A DNA stretch of 64,000 bases, from assembly GCF_016026235.1 (NCBI RefSeq), contig NZ_CP065613.1. The stretch is one strand, 5' to 3'. A model generated the notes under the pieces. The model was not told the origin of the DNA. It made no database searches and saw only the letters and a list, made by a program, of their open reading frames with translations. Within the stretch, counting starts at the first letter, position 1; each line of letters starts with the position of its first letter. The DNA comes from Escherichia coli. Its GTDB lineage: Bacteria; Pseudomonadota; Gammaproteobacteria; Enterobacterales; Enterobacteriaceae. Below are positions 2,606-51,307 of the stretch, in pieces. The position numbers and the translations under genes were made by a program.

Positions 2606-3859
2606 ATGACATTCTCCCTTTTTGGTGACAAATTTACCCGCCACTCCGGCATTACGCTGCTGATGGAAGATCTGAACGACGGTTTACGCACGCCTGGCGC
2701 GATTATGCTCGGCGGCGGTAATCCGGCGCAGATCCCGGAAATGCAGGACTACTTCCAGACGCTACTGACCGACATGCTGGAAAGTGGCAAAGCGACTGAT
2801 GCACTGTGCAATTACGACGGTCCACAGGGGAAAACGGAGCTACTCACACTGCTTGCCGGAATGCTGCGCGAGAAGTTGGGTTGGGATATCGAAGCACAGA
2901 ATATTGCACTAACAAACGGCAGCCAGAGCGCGTTTTTCTACTTATTTAATCTGTTTGCCGGACGCCGTGCCGATGGTCGGGTCAAAAAAGTGCTGTTCCC
3001 GCTGGCACCGGAATACATTGGCTACGCTGACGCCGGACTGGAAGAAGATCTGTTTGTCTCTGCGCGTCCGAATATTGAACTGCTGCCGGAAGGCCAGTTT
3101 AAATACCACGTCGATTTTGAGCATCTGCATATTGGCGAAGAAACCGGGATGATTTGCGTCTCCCGGCCGACGAATCCAACAGGCAATGTGATTACTGACG
3201 AAGAGTTGCTGAAGCTTGACGCGCTGGCGAATCAACACGGCATTCCGCTGGTGATTGATAACGCTTATGGCGTCCCGTTCCCGGGTATCATCTTCAGTGA
3301 AGCGCGCCCGCTATGGAATCCGAATATCGTGCTGTGCATGAGTCTTTCCAAGCTGGGGCTGCCTGGCTCCCGCTGCGGCATTATCATCGCCAATGAAAAA
3401 ATCATCACTGCCATCACCAATATGAACGGCATTATCAGCCTGGCACCTGGCGGTATTGGTCCGGCGATGATGTGTGAAATGATTAAGCGTAACGATCTGC
3501 TGCGCCTGTCTGAAACAGTCATCAAACCGTTTTACTACCAGCGTGTTCAGGAAACTATCGCCATCATTCGCCGCTATTTACCGGAAGATCGCTGCCTAAT
3601 TCATAAACCAGAAGGAGCCATTTTCCTCTGGCTATGGTTTAAGGATTTGCCCATTACGACCGAGCAACTCTACCAGCGCCTGAAAGCACGCGGCGTGCTG
3701 ATGGTGCCGGGGCACAACTTCTTCCCGGGACTGGATAAACCGTGGCCGCATACGCATCAATGTATGCGCATGAACTACGTACCAGAGCCGGAGAAAATTG
3801 AGGCGGGGGTGAAGATTCTGGCGGAAGAGATAGAAAGAGCCTGGGCTGAAAGTCACTAA
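2606..3859 (+). CDS. avtA: Valine-pyruvate aminotransferase (alanine-valine transaminase)
   Basis: The ORF-track ORF 2501..3859 has an unsupported 5' extension; the internal ATG at 2606 gives a 417-aa product starting MTFSLFGDKF, matching the AvtA N-terminus. Class I/II aminotransferase with the SLSKLG PLP-lysine motif. Confidence 0.9.
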   Translation: MTFSLFGDKFTRHSGITLLMEDLNDGLRTPGAIMLGGGNPAQIPEMQDYFQTLLTDMLESGKATDALCNYDGPQGKTELLTLLAGMLREKLGWDIEAQNIALTNGSQSAFFYLFNLFAGRRADGRVKKVLFPLAPEYIGYADAGLEEDLFVSARPNIELLPEGQFKYHVDFEHLHIGEETGMICVSRPTNPTGNVITDEELLKLDALANQHGIPLVIDNAYGVPFPGIIFSEARPLWNPNIVLCMSLSKLGLPGSRCGIIIANEKIITAITNMNGIISLAPGGIGPAMMCEMIKRNDLLRLSETVIKPFYYQRVQETIAIIRRYLPEDRCLIHKPEGAIFLWLWFKDLPITTEQLYQRLKARGVLMVPGHNFFPGLDKPWPHTHQCMRMNYVPEPEKIEAGVKILAEEIERAWAESH

Positions 3860-3862
3860 AAA

Positions 3863-3965
3863 TTGCCTGATGCGCTACGCTTATCAGGCCTACATAATTT
3901 CTGCAATATATTGAATTTGGAAGAATTTGTAGGCCGGATAAGGCGTTTACGCCGCATCTGGCATA
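3863..3965. repeat. REP/BIME palindromic units
   Basis: Inverted copies of the REP consensus (GCCTGATGCGCTACGCTTATCAGGCCTAC … GTAGGCCGGATAAGGCGTTTACGCCGCATC) downstream of avtA. Confidence 0.8.
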
Positions 3966-4009
3966 AACAAAGCGCACTATTCCGGCGTTGAGAAACGCCG
4001 GAAAACGTT

Positions 4010-4489: not shown

Positions 4490-4726
4490 TCCTTTGCACT
4501 AAAACAGCAGAGTGCCAGAGAGCGCGTCCCTACTGCTTTGATCCAACGAAGGAAATGTTAAAGTTTTGGCACTTGTCCAAAGCGTTATGTGATCGCGCCC
4601 TGGTCGTCCCTGACAGTAAACCCCAGTTCATTAGAAATAGCCTGCGCGGTTTCACGCAGAGGTTTCAGGAGATTTTTCTCTCCCACCTGTTTCAGACGTG
4701 ATGTCGAAAGCGAAATCGACACGGCA

Positions 4727-5542
4727 CTACGAATTGATATGTTCCTTGCTGTAACGCCGCTTCCACGCTGCTGGCGTTAAACCGGTGTGTTTGCGAAAAA
4801 TCTGCCGGAAATAGCCAACGTCATTAAACCCGCACAACGCCGCCACTTCCGTGAGCGATCGCGCTTCGCTAATTAACAGCTTTTCGGCTTCGCGCACCCG
4901 CTGGCGATGGATTGCTTCTGTTAACGTCAGATGAAACACCCACCGGTAGACGCGCCCAAGATAATCGGCATTGCAGTACAGCTCGCGGGCCAGAAGCGCC
5001 GTAGAAAGCGGGCGATGATATTGCGTGCGGATCAGTTTCTGCGCTTTCCAGGCAAGGGTGGTGCCTGCGCCATCGGCCTGTTCATCAAGACGCGCGTCAC
5101 GGGTGAGCTGCTGCAAAATGAGCAGCACAATAAACTCCAGCGCCGGAGTGCGTTGATGCTTTTCCTGTTCGCTTAAGAACTGGCGAAACAGGGCCACCAG
5201 CGCCTGCGGATCGACAACCTTCGTTTGTTGCGGCACGCTAAGATGAGTAAGCCAGCGAGGGTCGTTGTCCGGCGCTTTAACCTCAAAATGCAGCCAGTAA
5301 AATTTGAGATCGGCGGGAAAATCCTCCACCCCAACATGTTGTCGGTTCGGCCAGAGTAATAAACTCTCTCCCGCATCGACCAGAAATATCCGTTCTTCTT
5401 CCTGAATCGTTAATCGACCTTTTTCGACAAAGATAATTTCCCATGACTCCAGCCGCCTTGCAGGATGCCTCCCTACGCCACGGGAAATAAATAATCCACC
5501 ATTTTGCACTTTAATCGGTAACGTCATGGATAATTCGAGCAT
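4727..5542 (-). CDS. AraC/XylS-family transcriptional regulator (cupin sensor domain plus C-terminal HTH)
   Basis: 271-aa ORF with a C-terminal AraC-type HTH signature (…TEVAALCGFNDVGYFRQIFRKHTGLTPAAWKR); divergent from the adjacent transporter gene. Confidence 0.8.
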   Translation of the reverse strand: MLELSMTLPIKVQNGGLFISRGVGRHPARRLESWEIIFVEKGRLTIQEEERIFLVDAGESLLLWPNRQHVGVEDFPADLKFYWLHFEVKAPDNDPRWLTHLSVPQQTKVVDPQALVALFRQFLSEQEKHQRTPALEFIVLLILQQLTRDARLDEQADGAGTTLAWKAQKLIRTQYHRPLSTALLARELYCNADYLGRVYRWVFHLTLTEAIHRQRVREAEKLLISEARSLTEVAALCGFNDVGYFRQIFRKHTGLTPAAWKRRYSKEHINS

Positions 5543-5591
5543 TGATATGTAATTTCCCGCTTATTCATTAATGATTAAACACATTACCTTT

Positions 5592-5604
5592 TGATTATTA
5601 ATCA
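5592..5604. promoter_or_regulatory. Perfect 13-bp palindrome TGATTATTAATCA in the divergent promoter region (candidate operator)
   Basis: Seen directly in the 225-bp AT-rich spacer between the AraC-family gene and the GPH transporter gene; a second TTAATGATTAA half-palindrome lies about 25 bp upstream. Confidence 0.3.
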
Positions 5605-5767
5605 AAAATATTAATTTCACCTGATCCATTTCACACTTTTAAATTCAGGTCGGAATCGTCACCTTTTTTTACTCTTTTCTCGCCTTGTTGATATTCCCGT
5701 TCACGGCAGAATTAATCAGGTCATTTCAATAAAACTAAAAATTGCTCCCTATTCACGAGGAATATCT

Positions 5768-7168
5768 ATGACCTCTACACCGATTACTACCGCTGATATC
5801 GCTAAAGGTAAAATTGACGATGCGTTATCTGTACGGGAAAAAATAGGCTACGGCCTGGGTGACGCAGGCGGCACCGTAATAACTTGCCTGATCATGAATT
5901 TTCTCACCTTTTTCTACACCGACGTTTTTGGATTAACTCCGGCGCTGGTTGGCACGCTGTTTATTGCACTGCGCGTGTTTGATGCCATCTCCGACCCGGT
6001 GATGGGCGTCATTGCCGACCGGACGCAAAGTCGCTGGGGGCGCTTTCGCCCGTGGCAGCTATGGATTGCCATTCCCATCGGCATTATCGGCATCCTGACG
6101 TTCACCGTGCCAGATGCCAGCATGGGAGTAAAAATCGCCTGGGCGTTCGGTACTTACCTGCTCCTTTCAGTCGGTTATACCGCCATCAACGTACCGTACT
6201 GCGCGCTGATCAACACCATGACCACCCGCCACAATGAAGTGATCTCCTGCCAGTCCTGGCGATTCGTTCTCTGTGGCGTAGCGGGATTTCTGGTTTCGGT
6301 AGGCTTACCGTGGATGGTAGATCTCTTCGGTCAGGGTAATGCCGCGCGCGGCTATCAATTGGGCGTCGGCGTGCTGTGCGCCATTGCCGTGGTGATGTTC
6401 CTGTGCTGTTTTTTCTGGGTTCGTGAACGGGTGCCACTCTCCACAATGGGGAAATTTACCCTGCGCGAACATCTTGCCGAGCTGCGGAACAACGACCAAC
6501 TGCTGCTGATGCTGGTCATGTCTTTCCTGCTGATTAACGTCTTTAACATTCGCGGCGGTGGGTATATGTACTTCATTACCTACGTCTTACAAGGCAGTAC
6601 GGGCTACACGTCGCTGTTCTTCACCATGGTCACCTTCGCCTCCATTATCGGCTCGGTGATTGTCAGCCCGTTAACGCGGCGTTTCGATACCGTCAAAATT
6701 TACTACTACACCAACCTGCTCCTCGCTGCGCTGGCGGTGTTGATGTGGTTCCTGCCCTCCGGCCCGGCTTATCAAACGCTGTGGCTGGCGGTGATCCTCG
6801 GTAATGGCGTAATTCTTGGCTTCACATTGCCACTGCACTTCTCATTGATGGCCTTTGCCGATGACTACGGCGAGTGGAAAACCCGCGTACGTTCTTCCGG
6901 CATGAACTTCGCCTTCAATCTGTTTTTCATCAAGCTGGCCTGGGCCTCCAGCGCCGGGATCATCAGCCTGCTGTTTATTTTTGTCGCCTACCAGCCAGGC
7001 GTGGAAAACCAGACCACCAGTTCGCTTGGCGGGATCGCGGCGATGGAAACATTACTGCCTGCGCTATTCCACCTGCTGCTGGCAGGGGCGATCCGCTTTT
7101 GCAAACTCAATAATCCTATGATGTCACGCATAGCTACCGACCTGCGTCAGCGTCATGTACAGCCTTAA
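5768..7168 (+). CDS. Glycoside-pentoside-hexuronide (GPH/MelB-like) cation symporter
   Basis: 466-aa ORF with about 12 predicted hydrophobic helices and the GPH N-terminal signature ([12 protein letters not shown] … [25 protein letters not shown]); resembles the YicJ/MelB family. Confidence 0.8.
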
Positions 7169-7178
7169 GGAGCACAAG

Positions 7179-9158
7179 ATGAACATTTCGGAAGTCGATC
7201 TGCATAAACTGACGGTCAGCGATCCGTTCCTCGGTCAGTACCAACAACTGGTCCGCGACGTGGTGATTCCTTATCAGTGGGATGCCTTGAACGATCGTAT
7301 CCCAGAAGCGGAACCCAGCCATGCGATTGAAAACTTTCGCATTGCCGCCGGACTTCAGGAGGGTGAATTTTACGGGATGGTGTTTCAGGACAGCGACGTC
7401 GCCAAATGGCTGGAAGCGGTAGCCTGGTCGCTGTGCCAGAAGCCGGACGCCGAACTGGAAAAAACCGCCGACGAGGTAATCGAACTGATCGCCTCCGCCC
7501 AATGCGAAGACGGCTATCTCAATACTTACTTTACGGTAAAAGCACCCGAAGAACGCTGGAGCAATCTGGCGGAGTGTCATGAACTTTACTGCGCAGGTCA
7601 TCTGATTGAAGCCGGAGTCGCCTTCTTCCAGGCCACGGGAAAACGGCGCTTGCTGGGGGTCGTTTGCCGCCTGGCCGATCATATCGACAGCGTATTTGGT
7701 CCAGATGAAAGTAAGTTACACGGTTATCCTGGTCACCCGGAAATTGAACTGGCACTAATGCGCCTGTATGAAGTGACTGAAGAGCCGCGCTACCTGGCGC
7801 TGACGAACTATTTTGTCGAACAGCGTGGTGCGCAACCGCACTATTACGACCAGGAATATGAAAAGCGCGGGCAGACATCGCACTGGCACACCTACGGCCC
7901 GGCGTGGATGGTGAAAGACAAAGCCTACAGCCAGGCACATTTGCCCCTTGCGCAACAGCAAACCGCCATCGGTCACGCGGTACGTTTTGTCTATCTGATG
8001 ACCGGCGTCGCGCATCTCGCGCGTTTAAGTCACGATGACAGCAAGCGTCAGGACTGCCTGCGGCTGTGGAACAATATGGCCCAGCGTCAGTTATATATTA
8101 CCGGCGGCATTGGCTCGCAAAGCAGCGGCGAAGCGTTCACTAGCGATTACGATCTGCCGAATGACACGGTATACGCTGAAAGTTGCGCCTCCATCGGCCT
8201 GATGATGTTTGCCCGACGAATGCTGGAAATGGAAGGCGACAGTCAATATGCCGATGTGATGGAGCGCGCACTGTACAACACCGTGCTCGGCGGCATGGCG
8301 CTGGATGGCAAACATTTCTTCTATGTGAATCCGCTGGAAGTACATCCAAAATCGCTGAAATTCAACCATATCTACGATCACGTTAAACCGATCCGCCAGC
8401 GTTGGTTTGGCTGCGCTTGTTGTCCGCCAAATATCGCCCGCGTGCTGACCTCGATTGGTCATTATCTCTACACGCCGCGTGAAGATGCGTTGTATATCAA
8501 CATATACGCAGGAAACAGCATGGAAGTGCCGGTAGAAAATGGCACGCTGCGCCTGCGGGTTAGCGGGAACTATCCGTGGCAGGAGCAGGTGACGATTGCG
8601 GTTGAATCGCCCCAGCCGGTACGTCATACGCTGGCTTTACGTCTGCCGGACTGGTGCACACAGCCGCAGATCATATTGAATGGGGAAGAGGTCGAGCAGG
8701 ATATTCGTAAAGGGTATTTGCACATTACCCGCGAATGGCAGGAGGGCGATACGCTGAATCTGACTTTGCCGATGCCGGTACGCCGCGTTTACGGTAACCC
8801 GCTGGTGCGTCACGTCGCCGGAAAAGTGGCGATTCAGCGCGGCCCGCTGGTGTATTGCCTGGAACAGGCCGACAACGGCGAGTCACTGCATAATCTGTGG
8901 CTGCCCACCGATGCGCCATTTACGACATTTGAAGGCAAGGGATTGTTTAGCCATAAGATCTTAATCCAGGCACCGGGTTACCGGTATGAACAGAGCAATC
9001 CAGAGCAGCAACCGCTGTGGCATTACGACAGCGCGCCAGCCAAACGCCAGCCGCAAACTCTGACCTTTATCCCGTGGTTTAGCTGGGCTAACCGGGGCGA
9101 AGGCGAAATGCGGATCTGGGTGAATGAGGAAAAGCATCGCCATCCGGAGGTTGGATAA
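7179..9158 (+). CDS. Glycoside hydrolase family 127-like protein (DUF1680, beta-L-arabinofuranosidase family)
   Basis: A start at ATG 7179 is preceded by an AAGGAG RBS; the ORF-track start at 7155 overlaps the transporter stop. The 659-aa product contains a Cys-rich CACCPPN motif of the kind found in GH127 enzymes. Confidence 0.7.
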   Translation: MNISEVDLHKLTVSDPFLGQYQQLVRDVVIPYQWDALNDRIPEAEPSHAIENFRIAAGLQEGEFYGMVFQDSDVAKWLEAVAWSLCQKPDAELEKTADEVIELIASAQCEDGYLNTYFTVKAPEERWSNLAECHELYCAGHLIEAGVAFFQATGKRRLLGVVCRLADHIDSVFGPDESKLHGYPGHPEIELALMRLYEVTEEPRYLALTNYFVEQRGAQPHYYDQEYEKRGQTSHWHTYGPAWMVKDKAYSQAHLPLAQQQTAIGHAVRFVYLMTGVAHLARLSHDDSKRQDCLRLWNNMAQRQLYITGGIGSQSSGEAFTSDYDLPNDTVYAESCASIGLMMFARRMLEMEGDSQYADVMERALYNTVLGGMALDGKHFFYVNPLEVHPKSLKFNHIYDHVKPIRQRWFGCACCPPNIARVLTSIGHYLYTPREDALYINIYAGNSMEVPVENGTLRLRVSGNYPWQEQVTIAVESPQPVRHTLALRLPDWCTQPQIILNGEEVEQDIRKGYLHITREWQEGDTLNLTLPMPVRRVYGNPLVRHVAGKVAIQRGPLVYCLEQADNGESLHNLWLPTDAPFTTFEGKGLFSHKILIQAPGYRYEQSNPEQQPLWHYDSAPAKRQPQTLTFIPWFSWANRGEGEMRIWVNEEKHRHPEVG

Positions 9159-9278: not shown

Positions 9279-10019
9279 TTAAAAACGCCAGCTCACGCCG
9301 GTGACAAAGGTAAAACTCTCATTACGATCAATCATCGGGCTGTCGGTAACCTCTTCCGGCAGCTCGCTGTATCCTGCGCTCGCCATCAATACGACGTGCT
9401 CTCCTATCGGGTATTTTGCCGTCAGGCTGACATAGGGCACCCAGGCATCCTGCGCGGAATAACTTGCCAGACCGCTACGACGGGACTCACTCTCTGAAAT
9501 GCCATAGTAATAGTCACTGAAATTCTCGTCATAATAGAGAACGCCCAGCGCAGGTGTCAGCGACAGACGACCTATCTGCATTTTGTGGAATACCGATAGC
9601 TCCCCCACCCAGCCGTTGCTGTTATCCAGAACGTCCGCAGCTGCAGAGGCTTTCACGGTTCCCCAACGCTCGTGGTGATACCAGGCAACCCCCGCCATAG
9701 CCGTACTATCACGCTTATCAAGCTGTTGCATGACATAATCGTCATTATCGGCAGGGTCAAATTCCAGCGGCATCCAGGATGCGGTCAGGCTAAGTTCATT
9801 TTTTTCACTTTGCGACAGAATAAAACCTAACGTGGTCTGACGAACATAAAAAGTATCACCTTCATAGCTAATCAGCGGAATTGCCTTTGTATTTTCATTA
9901 TAACCGCGATAAGGTGATTCATTATAAGCCGCACCGGCACCAATGGATAATTCAGGAGCAGTTGCGCTTGCCATAAAAGGCAACGCAAATAACGCCACAA
10001 TATTGCGGTTAATTAACAT
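9279..10019 (-). CDS. yiaT: MipA/OmpV-family outer-membrane protein
   Basis: 246-aa ORF with a signal peptide (MLINRNIVALFALPFMASATA) and a C-terminal aromatic residue (…GVSWRF) typical of beta-barrels; length and position match YiaT. Confidence 0.8.
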   Translation of the reverse strand: MLINRNIVALFALPFMASATAPELSIGAGAAYNESPYRGYNENTKAIPLISYEGDTFYVRQTTLGFILSQSEKNELSLTASWMPLEFDPADNDDYVMQQLDKRDSTAMAGVAWYHHERWGTVKASAAADVLDNSNGWVGELSVFHKMQIGRLSLTPALGVLYYDENFSDYYYGISESESRRSGLASYSAQDAWVPYVSLTAKYPIGEHVVLMASAGYSELPEEVTDSPMIDRNESFTFVTGVSWRF

Positions 10020-10142
10020 GTCCGGTATTCCATTTTAAAATAAGATAAAAAAGAGTCGGCATAGTAATGCTTACAATTTCTCCGGTGCAAGATTCATATT
10101 TATATAGTAATATATAAAATTATATATAATTGGGCTGTTGCG

Positions 10143-11117
10143 ATGACAAAATTACAACTTAAGTACCGGGAGTTAAAAATTATCTCGGTAATCGCTGCCA
10201 GTGAAAATATCAGCCATGCCGCGACTGTACTTGGCATCGCACAGGCCAACGTCAGCAAATACCTTGCTGATTTTGAATCAAAAGTGGGTTTAAAAGTCTT
10301 TGACCGAACCACCCGGCAGCTGATGCTCACACCTTTTGGTACCGCGCTGTTACCGTACATCAACGACATGCTGGACAGAAACGAGCAGCTTAATAATTTT
10401 ATTGCAGATTATAAGCATGAGAAACGTGGTCGGGTCACCATCTACGCCCCAACCGGCATAATTACCTATTTATCCAAACATGTAATCGATAAAATTAAAG
10501 ATATCGGTGATATCACCTTATCGCTAAAAACCTGCAATCTTGAGCGTAATGCCTTTTATGAAGGCGTCGAATTTCCTGATGATTGTGATGTTTTAATCAG
10601 CTATGCCCCACCAAAAGATGAATCGCTGGTTGCCAGTTTTATTACCCAATATGCCGTAACCGCTTATGCCAGCCAGCGCTATCTTGAGAAACATCCCATT
10701 AGCCGTCCTGACGAACTCGAACATCACTCCTGTATTTTGATCGACTCGATGATGATCGACGACGCGAATATCTGGCGCTTCAACGTCGCTGGGAGTAAAG
10801 AGGTGCGGGATTATCGCGTGAAGGGAAATTACGTTTGCGACAACACGCAATCGGCGCTGGAGCTGGCACGAAATCACCTGGGGATTGTGTTTGCGCCAGA
10901 CAAAAGTGTGCAGAGCGATCTGCAAGACGGCACGCTGGTGCCCTGCTTTCAGCACCCGTATGAATGGTGGCTGGATCTGGTGGCTATCTTCCGTAAACGG
11001 GAATACCAGCCCTGGCGGGTCCAGTATGTGCTGGATGAAATGCTGCGTGAAATTCGCCACCAGCTTGCTCAGTCGCAGCAACTGCGGCCTGAACAAGCGG
11101 CGGAAAGCGAAGATTAA
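10143..11117 (+). CDS. yiaU: LysR-family transcriptional regulator
   Basis: 324-aa ORF with an N-terminal LysR HTH; divergent from yiaT across an AT-rich spacer. Confidence 0.85.
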
Positions 11118-21893: not shown

Positions 21894-22070
21894 TGTGATT
21901 CAGATCACAAAGATTCAACAAACCATCAAAACAAAAATGTGACATTAGTCACATTTAAATGCCATTTTTAGCGAAAATCGCCGCCTTGTGGCTTTTTTAC
22001 ACAAGCGTTTTGTGATGAACATCACGCCAATTACCTCTCTACCCCCTATATTTATGTGATTGATATCACA
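21894..22070 (+). promoter_or_regulatory. mtlA promoter region with four consensus-like CRP sites (21894-21909, 21938-21953, 22011-22026, 22055-22070)
   Basis: TGTGA-N6-TCACA read directly: TGTGATTCAGATCACA, TGTGACATTAGTCACA, TGTGATGAACATCACG, TGTGATTGATATCACA. The mtl promoter is known to carry multiple CRP sites. Confidence 0.7.
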
Positions 22071-50160: not shown

Positions 50161-50361
50161 TGCGATTCTCCAGACAGGGCAAATTCCAGCACATATTACC
50201 CAAACTTATACGTCGCGACGAGATGACGCGTTAACACTTCTGCAAAATTCAGGATAAATAACGTGTAACTTGATGTCTCTCAACACCTACAGATAGTAGA
50301 AAAACTGTACAGTTTTGGCTGGGCATAATGATGATTGATTTTACTGCATTGATATAAAAAG

Positions 50362-50434: not shown

Positions 50435-51307
50435 CTATTTTCTTGAAAGGAAAATTCTCAGCGCCTGCATTTTTGCCCCTAAAGTGTTACTCCTGAAGCA
50501 GCGAAACAAATCGAACCATTTTCCTCTCCCCAGATAGTTTAGGTTGAAGAGATCGGGGCGTTTGTAATAGCACATGACAAAAATGCCCTGGTCATCATCC
50601 ACAATGTTATTATTTAGTGTTATTTTTTGACTTTCCAGAACTAATTTATAGAATTCTTTCCATTTATGCTGTGAACCAACAATTGCGCCCCCAATAATAT
50701 ATACATGATTGCCAATCATGAAATCAAAAACCTGTTGTTGAGATGTGACAGTAAGCCCTTTTTTTATAGTGAAAAGATGCATCTTACTTTCATCAAATGG
50801 GAAATCCCAAATTTTCAATCCTCGAGTTACATTTGGCTTACGGCAATAGCCAAAATCTATCCACGCAACAAGAGGCGTTTTCACTAAGCCCATGTTGATA
50901 GCTTTATTTACAAAATAGGCCTTAAGGTTACATACCAATACATACTCTGGTGACCAGTACTCTGGGTTTTTTAATTGTCGAGGCTCAAGTCTATTTGTAA
51001 ACGACTCATCTTTTTGAATTTTTTCGATACGACTTCTGATATATCTAAATTTCTTTTTTATATCGATAACGATAACCGTTGTTGGTTTTCCGTTGCGAAT
51101 CGCTTCAACCCTTGGTTTCAAATCGGGAGAAGTGAAAATAATCATCTCATTTTCAAGTGCGGCCAGACGCTCAAAGTAACTAAAATAAACATCAACTGAA
51201 CGAGCTAGTTTTTCACGGAACCCTTTATTAGCAGTCCAATCCCCTCTACCAATGTCAAAATATGCAGTGATAATTGTGGTGGATGATTTCATTACTAATA
51301 AGACCAT
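50435..51307 (-). CDS. htrL: HtrL/YibB-family protein (LPS-locus associated, function unclear)
   Basis: 290-aa ORF, AT-rich, located between kbl and hldD as htrL is in E. coli. Confidence 0.7.
   Translation of the reverse strand: MVLLVMKSSTTIITAYFDIGRGDWTANKGFREKLARSVDVYFSYFERLAALENEMIIFTSPDLKPRVEAIRNGKPTTVIVIDIKKKFRYIRSRIEKIQKDESFTNRLEPRQLKNPEYWSPEYVLVCNLKAYFVNKAINMGLVKTPLVAWIDFGYCRKPNVTRGLKIWDFPFDESKMHLFTIKKGLTVTSQQQVFDFMIGNHVYIIGGAIVGSQHKWKEFYKLVLESQKITLNNNIVDDDQGIFVMCYYKRPDLFNLNYLGRGKWFDLFRCFRSNTLGAKMQALRIFLSRK

Follow-up and report, generated by a model that had tools for sequence, protein, structure and literature searches.

The control regions of several sugar operons that diverge from the gene of an AraC-type regulator have been described. 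At araBAD and rhaBAD, a CRP site lies at about -92.5 or -93.5, and the tandem sites of AraC, RhaS and MelR occupy roughly -30 to -75, overlapping the -35 element. The melR promoter requires CRP at a site that overlaps its -35 and is subject to autoregulation at the start site (PMC2377442). In bidirectional promoters, -11A and -7T are reciprocally paired and the start sites are 18 bp apart (PMC10268837). Here, the spacer between an AraC-type regulator gene and a sugar transporter gene of Escherichia coli was compared with these systems. On balance, we favour the reading that it is a classical AraC-type sugar-operon control region, in which the left arm and centre of a palindrome would carry the -10 element of the regulator gene while the dyad itself is not conserved.

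The accessory sugar module and its spacer

The window, the whole 64-kb stretch of E. coli chromosome that was analysed, contains in order malS, avtA, ysaA, a truncated remnant of an IclR-type gene, the module and yiaT. In K-12, this place is occupied by the yiaK-sgbE operon and the 5' portion of yiaJ. The module is an accessory part of the E. coli genome, with an AraC-type regulator gene divergent from genes for a GPH transporter and a GH127 enzyme (Table 1). A search of 5426 complete E. coli genomes located its spacer in 2321 (43%), chromosomal and in a single copy in every carrier, and the carriers of the module include O157:H7 and ATCC 8739. A literature search found no study of this locus. 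In EDL933, Z5000 (‘putative regulatory protein’) shows 48-fold RpoS-dependent expression (PMC2907692), and ECs4456 is yiaI (PMC2241611). By gene order via ECs4456, it is plausible that Z5000 is the regulator of the module; a cluster look-up and the supplements gave no confirmation.

The regulator has a cupin-type sugar-binding domain and two HTH motifs, and its homologues bear the Pfam domains PF02311, PF12833 and PF00165. The NCBIfam models for AraC, RhaR and MelR matched it weakly, all far below their cutoffs (E = 6.6e-9 for the MelR model). Judged from the sequence, none of the named members of the family, MelR included, is orthologous to the regulator. The GH127 gene showed a partial, sub-threshold match to the aceric acid hydrolase model. 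The earlier note on this DNA had described the 225-bp spacer as AT-rich, and this was borne out by a GC content of 31.6% versus 49.4% for the whole window. The genes of the module have 53-57% GC, so the AT-richness is confined to the spacer, and silencing of an AT-rich island by H-NS was rejected as an explanation.

Table 1. Features of the module and of its control region, with positions in the window
Feature	Position	Strand	Details
AraC-family regulator gene	4727-5542	minus	ORF, 271 aa; RefSeq: AraC family transcriptional regulator
Divergent control region	5543-5767		225 bp between the regulator and transporter ORFs
Second small palindrome TTAATGATTAA	5568-5578		5-1-5; starts 24 bp upstream of the first
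19-bp palindrome TTTTGATTA-T-TAATCAAAA	5589-5607		9-bp arms, central T; 13-bp core at 5592-5604
Invariant asymmetric 11-mer TTGATTATTAA	5591-5601		1.3-2.0 bits per position in 66 species; minus strand reads TTAATAATCAA
Proposed -10 of the regulator gene, AATAAT	5599 to 5594	minus	predicted start near 5585-5587
CRP-like site CCTGA-TCCATT-TCACA	5620-5635		centre 5627.5; followed by TTT
Nearly invariant 45-bp block	5646-5690	plus	CAGGTCGGAATCGTCAyCTTTTTaTACTTTTcccTtcCCTTGTTG, from the alignment
Proposed -10 of the transporter/GH127 promoter, CAGAAT	5707-5712	plus	predicted start near 5719-5720
Shine-Dalgarno sequence of the transporter gene, GAGGA	5757-5761	plus	GAGGAG/GAGGAA kept 6 nt before the ATG
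GPH-family (MFS) sugar:cation symporter gene	5768-7168	plus	TIGR00792, 332 bits, above cutoff; RefSeq: MFS transporter
Glycoside hydrolase family 127 gene (beta-L-arabinofuranosidase-like)	7179-9158	plus	RefSeq annotation, from which the start is taken

Conserved blocks and candidate promoters

A scan of one genome per species gave 80 loci across Enterobacterales, which included Citrobacter, Salmonella diarizonae, Enterobacter, Klebsiella, Raoultella, Kluyvera, Leclercia, Lelliottia, Kosakonia, Pantoea, Buttiauxella, Cedecea, Hafnia and Mangrovibacter. Identity of the regulator to the copy in the window ranged from 57% to 93%, and the layout of an AraC regulator gene divergent from the GPH transporter and GH127 genes was kept at nearly all loci, in about 78 species. 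The sequences and this synteny are observed directly, as are the pattern of conservation and the fixed spacings that emerged when 78 spacers (215-261 bp) were taken in the orientation of the window and aligned. The alignment consists of discrete conserved blocks with essentially random sequence between them. From left to right, the blocks are TTGATTATTAA, a GATC-N4-TCACA-N-TT element (5623-5639), the 45-bp block and, after a variable stretch, GCAGAAT (5706-5712) and the Shine-Dalgarno sequence of the transporter gene. The distance from TGATTAT to TCACA is 39 bp in 55 species, that from TCACA to GTCGGAAT is 18 bp in 74 of 78, and the offset from GTCGGAAT to TTGTTG is 36 bp in all 78.

The promoter of the transporter and GH127 genes would be weak and activator-dependent, with TTGTTG (5685-5690) as the -35 element, a 16-bp spacer and CAGAAT as the -10 element. 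TTGTTG, 16 bp of variable sequence and fixed length, and CAGAAT or CAAAAT follow one another in at least 70 of the 78 species, and the distance from this -10 to the transporter ATG varies from 51 to 91 bp. Read from the alignment, a fixed -35/-10 spacing together with a variable spacer and a variable leader is a classic promoter footprint. The pair was also the most consistent plus-strand promoter in PWM scoring (among the top three in 58 of 78 species), and it agrees with the consensus at 7 of 12 positions. A strict scan for the sigma-70 consensus at 5400-5900 in E. coli found no strong promoter, as is expected for activator-dependent promoters, and a strong constitutive promoter was rejected on the same result.

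The 45-bp block ends in CCTTGTTG, which contains the TTGTTG hexamer. By its position, it is proposed to hold the tandem sites of the AraC-type activator, which would bind at about -73 to -29, abutting and overlapping the -35 element of the operon. Clear 17-bp direct or inverted repeats could not be defined in the block. The best direct repeat inside it has a spacing of 21 bp (5656/5677) and is weak, with about 7 of 14 positions in agreement; a second repeat pair (5631/5659) has a spacing of 28 bp. As in other AraC-type control regions, an AraC-type sensor with a double HTH is encoded divergently from the operon, and about 40 bp of putative activator sites lie, by position, at the -35 of a weak promoter.

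The 11-mer is among the most constant parts of the alignment: positions 5592-5599 are 95-100% identical among the 66 species that have the element, and in 63 species the regulator ATG is 49 +/- 1 bp away from it. Its minus strand contains AATAAT, which we propose as the -10 of the regulator gene. The two key bases of a sigma-70 -10 element, A at -11 and T at -7, correspond to T5598 and A5594, and neither varies in any of the 66 species. The spacers were anchored on TCACA and every offset was scored for matches to a -10; a single peak appeared at AATAAT, 28.5 bp from the centre of the CRP-like site, with a median of +2.9 and negative values at the other offsets. From the CRP-like site to the regulator ATG, no other -10-like hexamer is conserved. 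No -35 hexamer was found at the proper distance from it, and the CRP-like site fills that place. The regulator promoter would therefore have the CRP-like site over its -35 region in place of a -35 element, about 40.5-41.5 bp upstream of a start at 5586-5587. The start base so predicted is not conserved. The strand assignment of this -10 rests on context, because GATTAT can be read from the same bases on the plus strand (5593-5598).

TGATTATT is missing from ten species. In nine (Buttiauxella, Cedecea, Atlantibacter and one C. freundii), an invariant GTGTAG is present instead; in Hafnia, the tenth, GTGTAG is also absent. On the strand of the regulator gene, GTGTAG reads CTACAC, giving TACACT in eight of the nine species, and this element lies 19 bp further from the CRP-like site than AATAAT, about two helical turns. 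This serves as an independent check of the proposed -10: whether AATAAT or its replacement is present, what stays invariant between the regulator gene and the CRP-like site is a single -10-like element.

Within the CRP-like site, TCACA (5631-5635) is invariant and so is GATC (5623-5626) except for its T9. In the numbering of the 22-mer, G7, A8, C10 and T15 to A19 occur in 78 of 78 species, T9 in 77, T21 in 74 and T22 in 76. The left TGT (T4 G5 T6) is not conserved, and G5 is found in 5 of 78. T9 and C10 are not among the key contacts of CRP. In E. coli, the site departs from TGTGA-N6-TCACA by two mismatches, which is no better than chance; 19 matches with two mismatches or fewer were found in the window versus 27 expected by chance, and the known sites of the mtlA promoter (21894-22070) have 0-1 mismatches. 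The centre of the CRP-like site falls at about -40.5/-41.5 of the regulator promoter, at about -59.5/-60.5 in the nine species with the alternative -10, and at about -91.5/-92.5 of the operon promoter. A perfect TCACA half, a consensus-like GATC and positions that fit three predicted promoters make CRP a reasonable but tentative assignment, and one such site would be common to both promoters of the spacer. As an alternative, TCACAyTTTTATCA could be a third copy of TCAyCTTTTTATAC, which lies 28 bp downstream in the invariant block, and thus a site of the AraC-type protein. An arabinose AraC half-site (TAGC-N7-TCCATA) at TCCATT (5625-5630) was rejected; TAGC is absent at the required distance and the match is not conserved. 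We infer both transcription starts, the identity of the bound proteins and the dependence on CRP from these sequence patterns.

The 11-mer TTGATTATTAA might instead be mainly a protein-binding site, either an autoregulatory operator like MelR site R and araO1 or the site of another factor, and as such it may overlap the regulator promoter. We regard this as a tentative possibility. Eight contiguous positions of the 11-mer agree to 97-100% across genera, a higher value than for the proposed -10 and -35 of the operon, the distances of the 11-mer to the other conserved blocks are rigid, and autoregulation at a regulator's own promoter has a precedent (PMC2377442). The conservation of TGATTATT, with the base kept in 64-66 of 66 species at each of 8 positions, is also tighter and wider than a -10 hexamer needs. 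The minus-strand hexamer does not include T5592 and G5593, although both are invariant, so a protein-recognition element, perhaps autoregulatory, probably overlaps the -10. As the main function of the 11-mer, binding fits less well with several observations. The 11-mer and the 45-bp block share the tetramer AATC only, and self-comparison of the PFM gave no strong pair. The ten species without the 11-mer keep the 45-bp block, and nine of them have another -10-like sequence in its stead. Direct reading of the 11-mer gave no match to the CRP, FNR, Fur or IHF consensus. Separately, a wider regulon marked by further copies of TGATTATT or GTCGGAAT found no support: in the 80 loci, TGATTATT clusters solely at the one conserved place, and in the window its frequency is that of the background, with a single copy of GTCGGAAT.

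It is unlikely that the regulator promoter lies further upstream, with rTGACG (5662-5657) as the -35 element, AAAAnT (5640-5635) as the -10 element and a start near 5628. The palindrome would then be in the 5' UTR, as a roadblock or an RNA element, and TCACA would be a promoter-proximal sequence or a repressor site. This pair was the commonest minus-strand PWM match (16-bp spacer, among the top three in 53 of 78 species), and its -35 is in invariant sequence. However, its -10 matches the consensus at 3-4 of 6 positions, and the 16-bp ‘spacer’ is itself highly conserved, unlike that of a typical promoter, so that the match may be a by-product of other constraints. It also leaves the invariant 11-mer unexplained. 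An RNA element was rejected: Rfam at E up to 1 gave no match in the region, the fold of the minus strand, and with it the would-be 5' UTR, was no better than that of shuffled sequences (z = -0.07), and the hairpin is not conserved.

The palindrome and its conservation

The 13-bp palindrome to which the earlier note had drawn attention, TGATTATTAATCA, is present at 5592-5604. It is described here as a 6-1-6 inverted repeat with a central T (TGATTA-T-TAATCA), because a strict palindrome is impossible at an odd length, and it extends to 19 bp. No other tight palindrome in the window is as long as the extended form. When the 225-bp spacer was subjected to dinucleotide shuffling 20,000 times, arms of at least 6 occurred in 20% of the shuffles and arms of at least 9 in 0.5% (P ~0.005), whereas 48% of shuffles of the whole 64-kb window contained at least one palindrome with arms of at least 9. 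Across the window, 45 palindromes with arms of at least 6 were observed versus 38 +/- 6 expected from shuffles. Because these frequencies depend on the scale of shuffling, the 13-bp palindrome is unremarkable, and the 19-bp palindrome is unusual locally but not window-wide. The spacer contains four copies of the hexamer TAATCA/TGATTA, a count matched in 6 of 20,000 shuffles. A related element about 25 bp upstream had also been reported. This is TTAATGATTAA, which is indeed at that distance, but it lies in a stretch (5563-5583) where the alignment shows near-zero conservation, and a function for it finds no support.

The 19-bp palindrome is unchanged in six sampled E. coli alleles, E. whittamii and C. 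amalonaticus, and it is already broken in other Citrobacter and in Salmonella diarizonae. E. whittamii and C. amalonaticus share with E. coli an identical 27-bp stretch, right arm included, next to a diverged left flank. Phylogenetic footprinting had been suggested as a check, with loss of the palindrome from orthologous spacers as evidence against it, and such loss was the outcome. The right arm TAATCA is present in just 12 of the 66 species with the 11-mer; elsewhere it is replaced by TAATGA, TAACGA, TCACGA, TAATAA, TAACAG and others. The invariant G5593 is mirrored by position 5603, where the alignment holds just 0.15 bits, and the 5593/5603 pair is complementary in 16 of 66 species. The two half-sites are thus not both conserved and complementary in orthologues, as those of a dyad operator should be. 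With the right arm in so few species and 5603 unconstrained, the conserved object is therefore the asymmetric 11-mer and not a dyad. The dyad is found more often than the approximately 5 species expected from independent base frequencies, but this excess is confounded by relatedness and is not convincing, because 5 of the 12 species are closely related Enterobacter. The proposal that these sequences are operator and promoter determinants thus holds in part: the spacer is a conserved divergent control region and the left half of the palindrome is among its most conserved parts, but the two-fold symmetry is not conserved.

The symmetry of the palindrome had been thought unusual for an AraC-type protein, and rightly so, since a compact dyad is unlike an AraC-type site. 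CRP or a nucleoid protein had been suggested in its place; CRP and, as a nucleoid protein, IHF were rejected for the palindrome. CRP requires TGTGA-N6-TCACA, a geometry that TGATTA-N1-TAATCA does not have, and the palindrome is absent among the matches to the CRP pattern with up to two mismatches in the window; the CRP-like half-site is instead found about 30 bp to the right. For IHF (WATCAA-N4-TTR), the minus strand has AATCAA, but TTR needs a plus-strand A at 5585, where T is found in 66 of 66 species. FNR was rejected because TTGAT-TATTA-ATCAA has a spacing of N5, one base off N4, with an invariant central TATT and a variable right half. A Fur box (TGATAAT-N-ATTATCA) was rejected as well; TGATTAT agrees with its left half at 6 of 7 positions and AATCAAA with its right half at 3 of 7, and this right half is not conserved.

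In the preferred reading, with the -10 of the regulator gene in the left arm and centre, the right arm TAATCA would be lineage-specific AT-rich promoter DNA that completes the symmetry by chance in Escherichia and a few other lineages. It is also conceivable, though improbable, that the 11-mer is recognised by another factor or by the AraC-type protein itself at its own -10, and that a lineage-specific completion of the dyad recruits a second subunit. In this equally improbable scenario, the Escherichia/C. amalonaticus lineage would have completed the dyad, and a few others would have done so on their own. If it were true, it would mean a lineage-specific, tighter control of a plant-glycan utilisation module in 43% of E. 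coli, including O157:H7.

Least probable is that, in Escherichia at any rate, a dimeric regulator (CRP or another repressor, or a nucleoid protein) binds the palindrome as a true two-fold operator: the rarity of the palindrome in spacer shuffles, its identity in E. coli, E. whittamii and C. amalonaticus despite the diverging left flank, and perfect dyads with other outer arms in some Enterobacter, Yokenella, Kosakonia and Pantoea (for example ATATTGATTA-T-TAATCAATAT) speak for it, but the dyad is absent in 54 of 66 species, a palindrome of this size arises somewhere in about half of the shuffled windows, the CRP and FNR geometries do not fit, and the outer arms are A/T runs in which complementarity arises easily.

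The palindrome is a reminder for caution, as a perfect palindrome in AT-rich promoter DNA can be a conserved asymmetric element with a fortuitous complement. Here, phylogenetic footprinting told the two apart. The analysis also offers a testable promoter map for an uncharacterised accessory sugar module that is widespread in Enterobacterales. Its value is modest, and it opens no long-standing question.

Comparison with known control regions

Like the bidirectional promoters, the invariant GATTATT reads nAnnnT on both strands, as GATTAT on the plus strand and AATAAT on the minus strand. It differs from them in that the symmetry centre of the heptamer is at 5596 and that of the palindrome at 5598, and in that the predicted initiating bases are not conserved. 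There is also a likeness to sites of the CRP/FNR family. The arms of the palindrome contain the FNR half-sites TTGAT and ATCAA, and the neighbouring element has the perfect TCACA half, the TTT flank and the GATC of the CRP consensus. Unlike these sites, the palindrome has N5 and not N4, and the left half of the CRP-like element lacks TGT.

The arrangement resembles araC-araBAD and rhaSR-rhaBAD in its divergent regulator gene, a putative activator block over the -35 and a CRP-like site one step upstream. In contrast to those systems, there are no clear 17-bp repeats here, and looping sites find no support. Closest in logic is melR-melAB (MelR, the GPH transporter MelB and the glycosidase MelA), where an AraC-type regulator gene is likewise divergent from an operon for a glycosidase and a GPH symporter. 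As at melR, the regulator promoter would have no -35 element and a CRP-type site in that place, the site here being CRP-like by its sequence (PMC2377442). Both regions also have a conserved sequence at the start region of the regulator gene, and activator sites, putative here, that adjoin the -35 of the operon (PMC2377442). They differ in dimensions, with a 225-bp spacer and predicted starts about 133 bp apart here and 237 bp in mel. In addition, a single CRP-like site, with only one good half, would serve both promoters here. Taken together, the sequence comparisons suggest that this region is an uncharacterised addition to the well-known control regions of the mel, ara and rha kind, and that its palindrome is largely incidental.

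Conserved elements in the spacer

The spacer between the AraC-type regulator gene and the divergent GPH transporter and GH127 genes contains a 45-bp block that is nearly invariant across orthologous spacers, and the flanking protein-coding genes are less conserved than this block at the DNA level. We read the block as putative activator sites together with the -35 element of the operon promoter; it contains no clearly definable half-site repeats. In E. coli ETEC4071 (H40, a genome match to the spacer query), the match ends at query position 127, corresponding to about window position 5669 and lying inside the invariant block, which suggests that the operon promoter is disrupted there by an inserted or rearranged sequence.

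The CRP-like element of the spacer includes a GATC, the Dam methylation site, at 5623-5626. It is kept in 77 of the 78 species compared; the G, A and C are present in all 78 and the T in 77. The GATC agrees with the CRP consensus TGTGATC, and through it the CRP-like element could be sensitive to methylation. Elsewhere in the window, at 21894-22070, presumably the mtlA promoter region, a cluster within 180 bp comprises four near-perfect CRP sites, each with at most one mismatch to TGTGA-N6-TCACA; this cluster served as a positive control for the CRP pattern.

Just outside the palindrome of the spacer, the window has T at position 5609, where most E. coli carriers have C. Exact matches to the 60-mer 5569-5628 were found in only 29 of 2207 genomes. 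After the spacer palindrome, the longest tight palindromes of the window are AAAACTGTACAGTTTT and CATGATTGCCAATCATG, both in the kbl/yibB region.

Features of the module, its spacer and other palindromes
Feature	Window position	Strand	Remarks
Three-gene module (AraC-type regulator, GPH transporter, GH127) with yiaJ remnant	4585-9158
IclR-type remnant, 3' end of yiaJ	about 4585-4725	minus	truncated
Regulator gene	4727-5542	minus	O157:H7 orthologue: L082 (module locus) 3185-4000
45-bp block, CAGGTCGGAATCGTCAyCTTTTTATACTTTT...CCTTGTTG	5646-5690		near-invariant from E. coli to Pantoea, Hafnia and Mangrovibacter
Palindrome AAAACTGTACAGTTTT	50301-50316		8-0-8
Palindrome CATGATTGCCAATCATG	50704-50720		8-1-8

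Location of the module and identity of its regulator

The module is flanked by the truncated IclR-type remnant on one side and by yiaT on the other. Of 5426 complete E. coli genomes, 2321 carry the module, O157:H7 and ATCC 8739 among them. In the K-12 gene order, the position of the module is occupied by the yiaK-sgbE operon. yiaT is intact in the window (9279-10019). In E. coli FDAARGOS_943 (L001), to which the window is most closely related, yiaT and a neighbouring gene immediately downstream of the module have been truncated by an IS1A element (10044-10741 of that locus).

In EDL933, Z5000, annotated as a 'putative regulatory protein', is reported to show 48-fold RpoS-dependent expression in stationary phase (PMC2907692), and ECs4456 is yiaI (PMC2241611). 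By gene order, Z5000 is a plausible candidate for the regulator of the module.

An alternative -10-like element

The conserved element TGATTATT in the left half of the palindrome, proposed to carry the -10 of the regulator-gene promoter, is absent from the spacers upstream of the regulator gene in Buttiauxella, Cedecea, Atlantibacter and one C. freundii genome. These nine loci (L045, L061, L064, L067-L069, L071, L072 and L078) have an invariant GTGTAG, or CTACAC on the regulator strand, which in most of them reads as TCTACACT. This element resembles the sigma-S-type extended -10, and its distance from the CRP-like site is greater by 19 bp.
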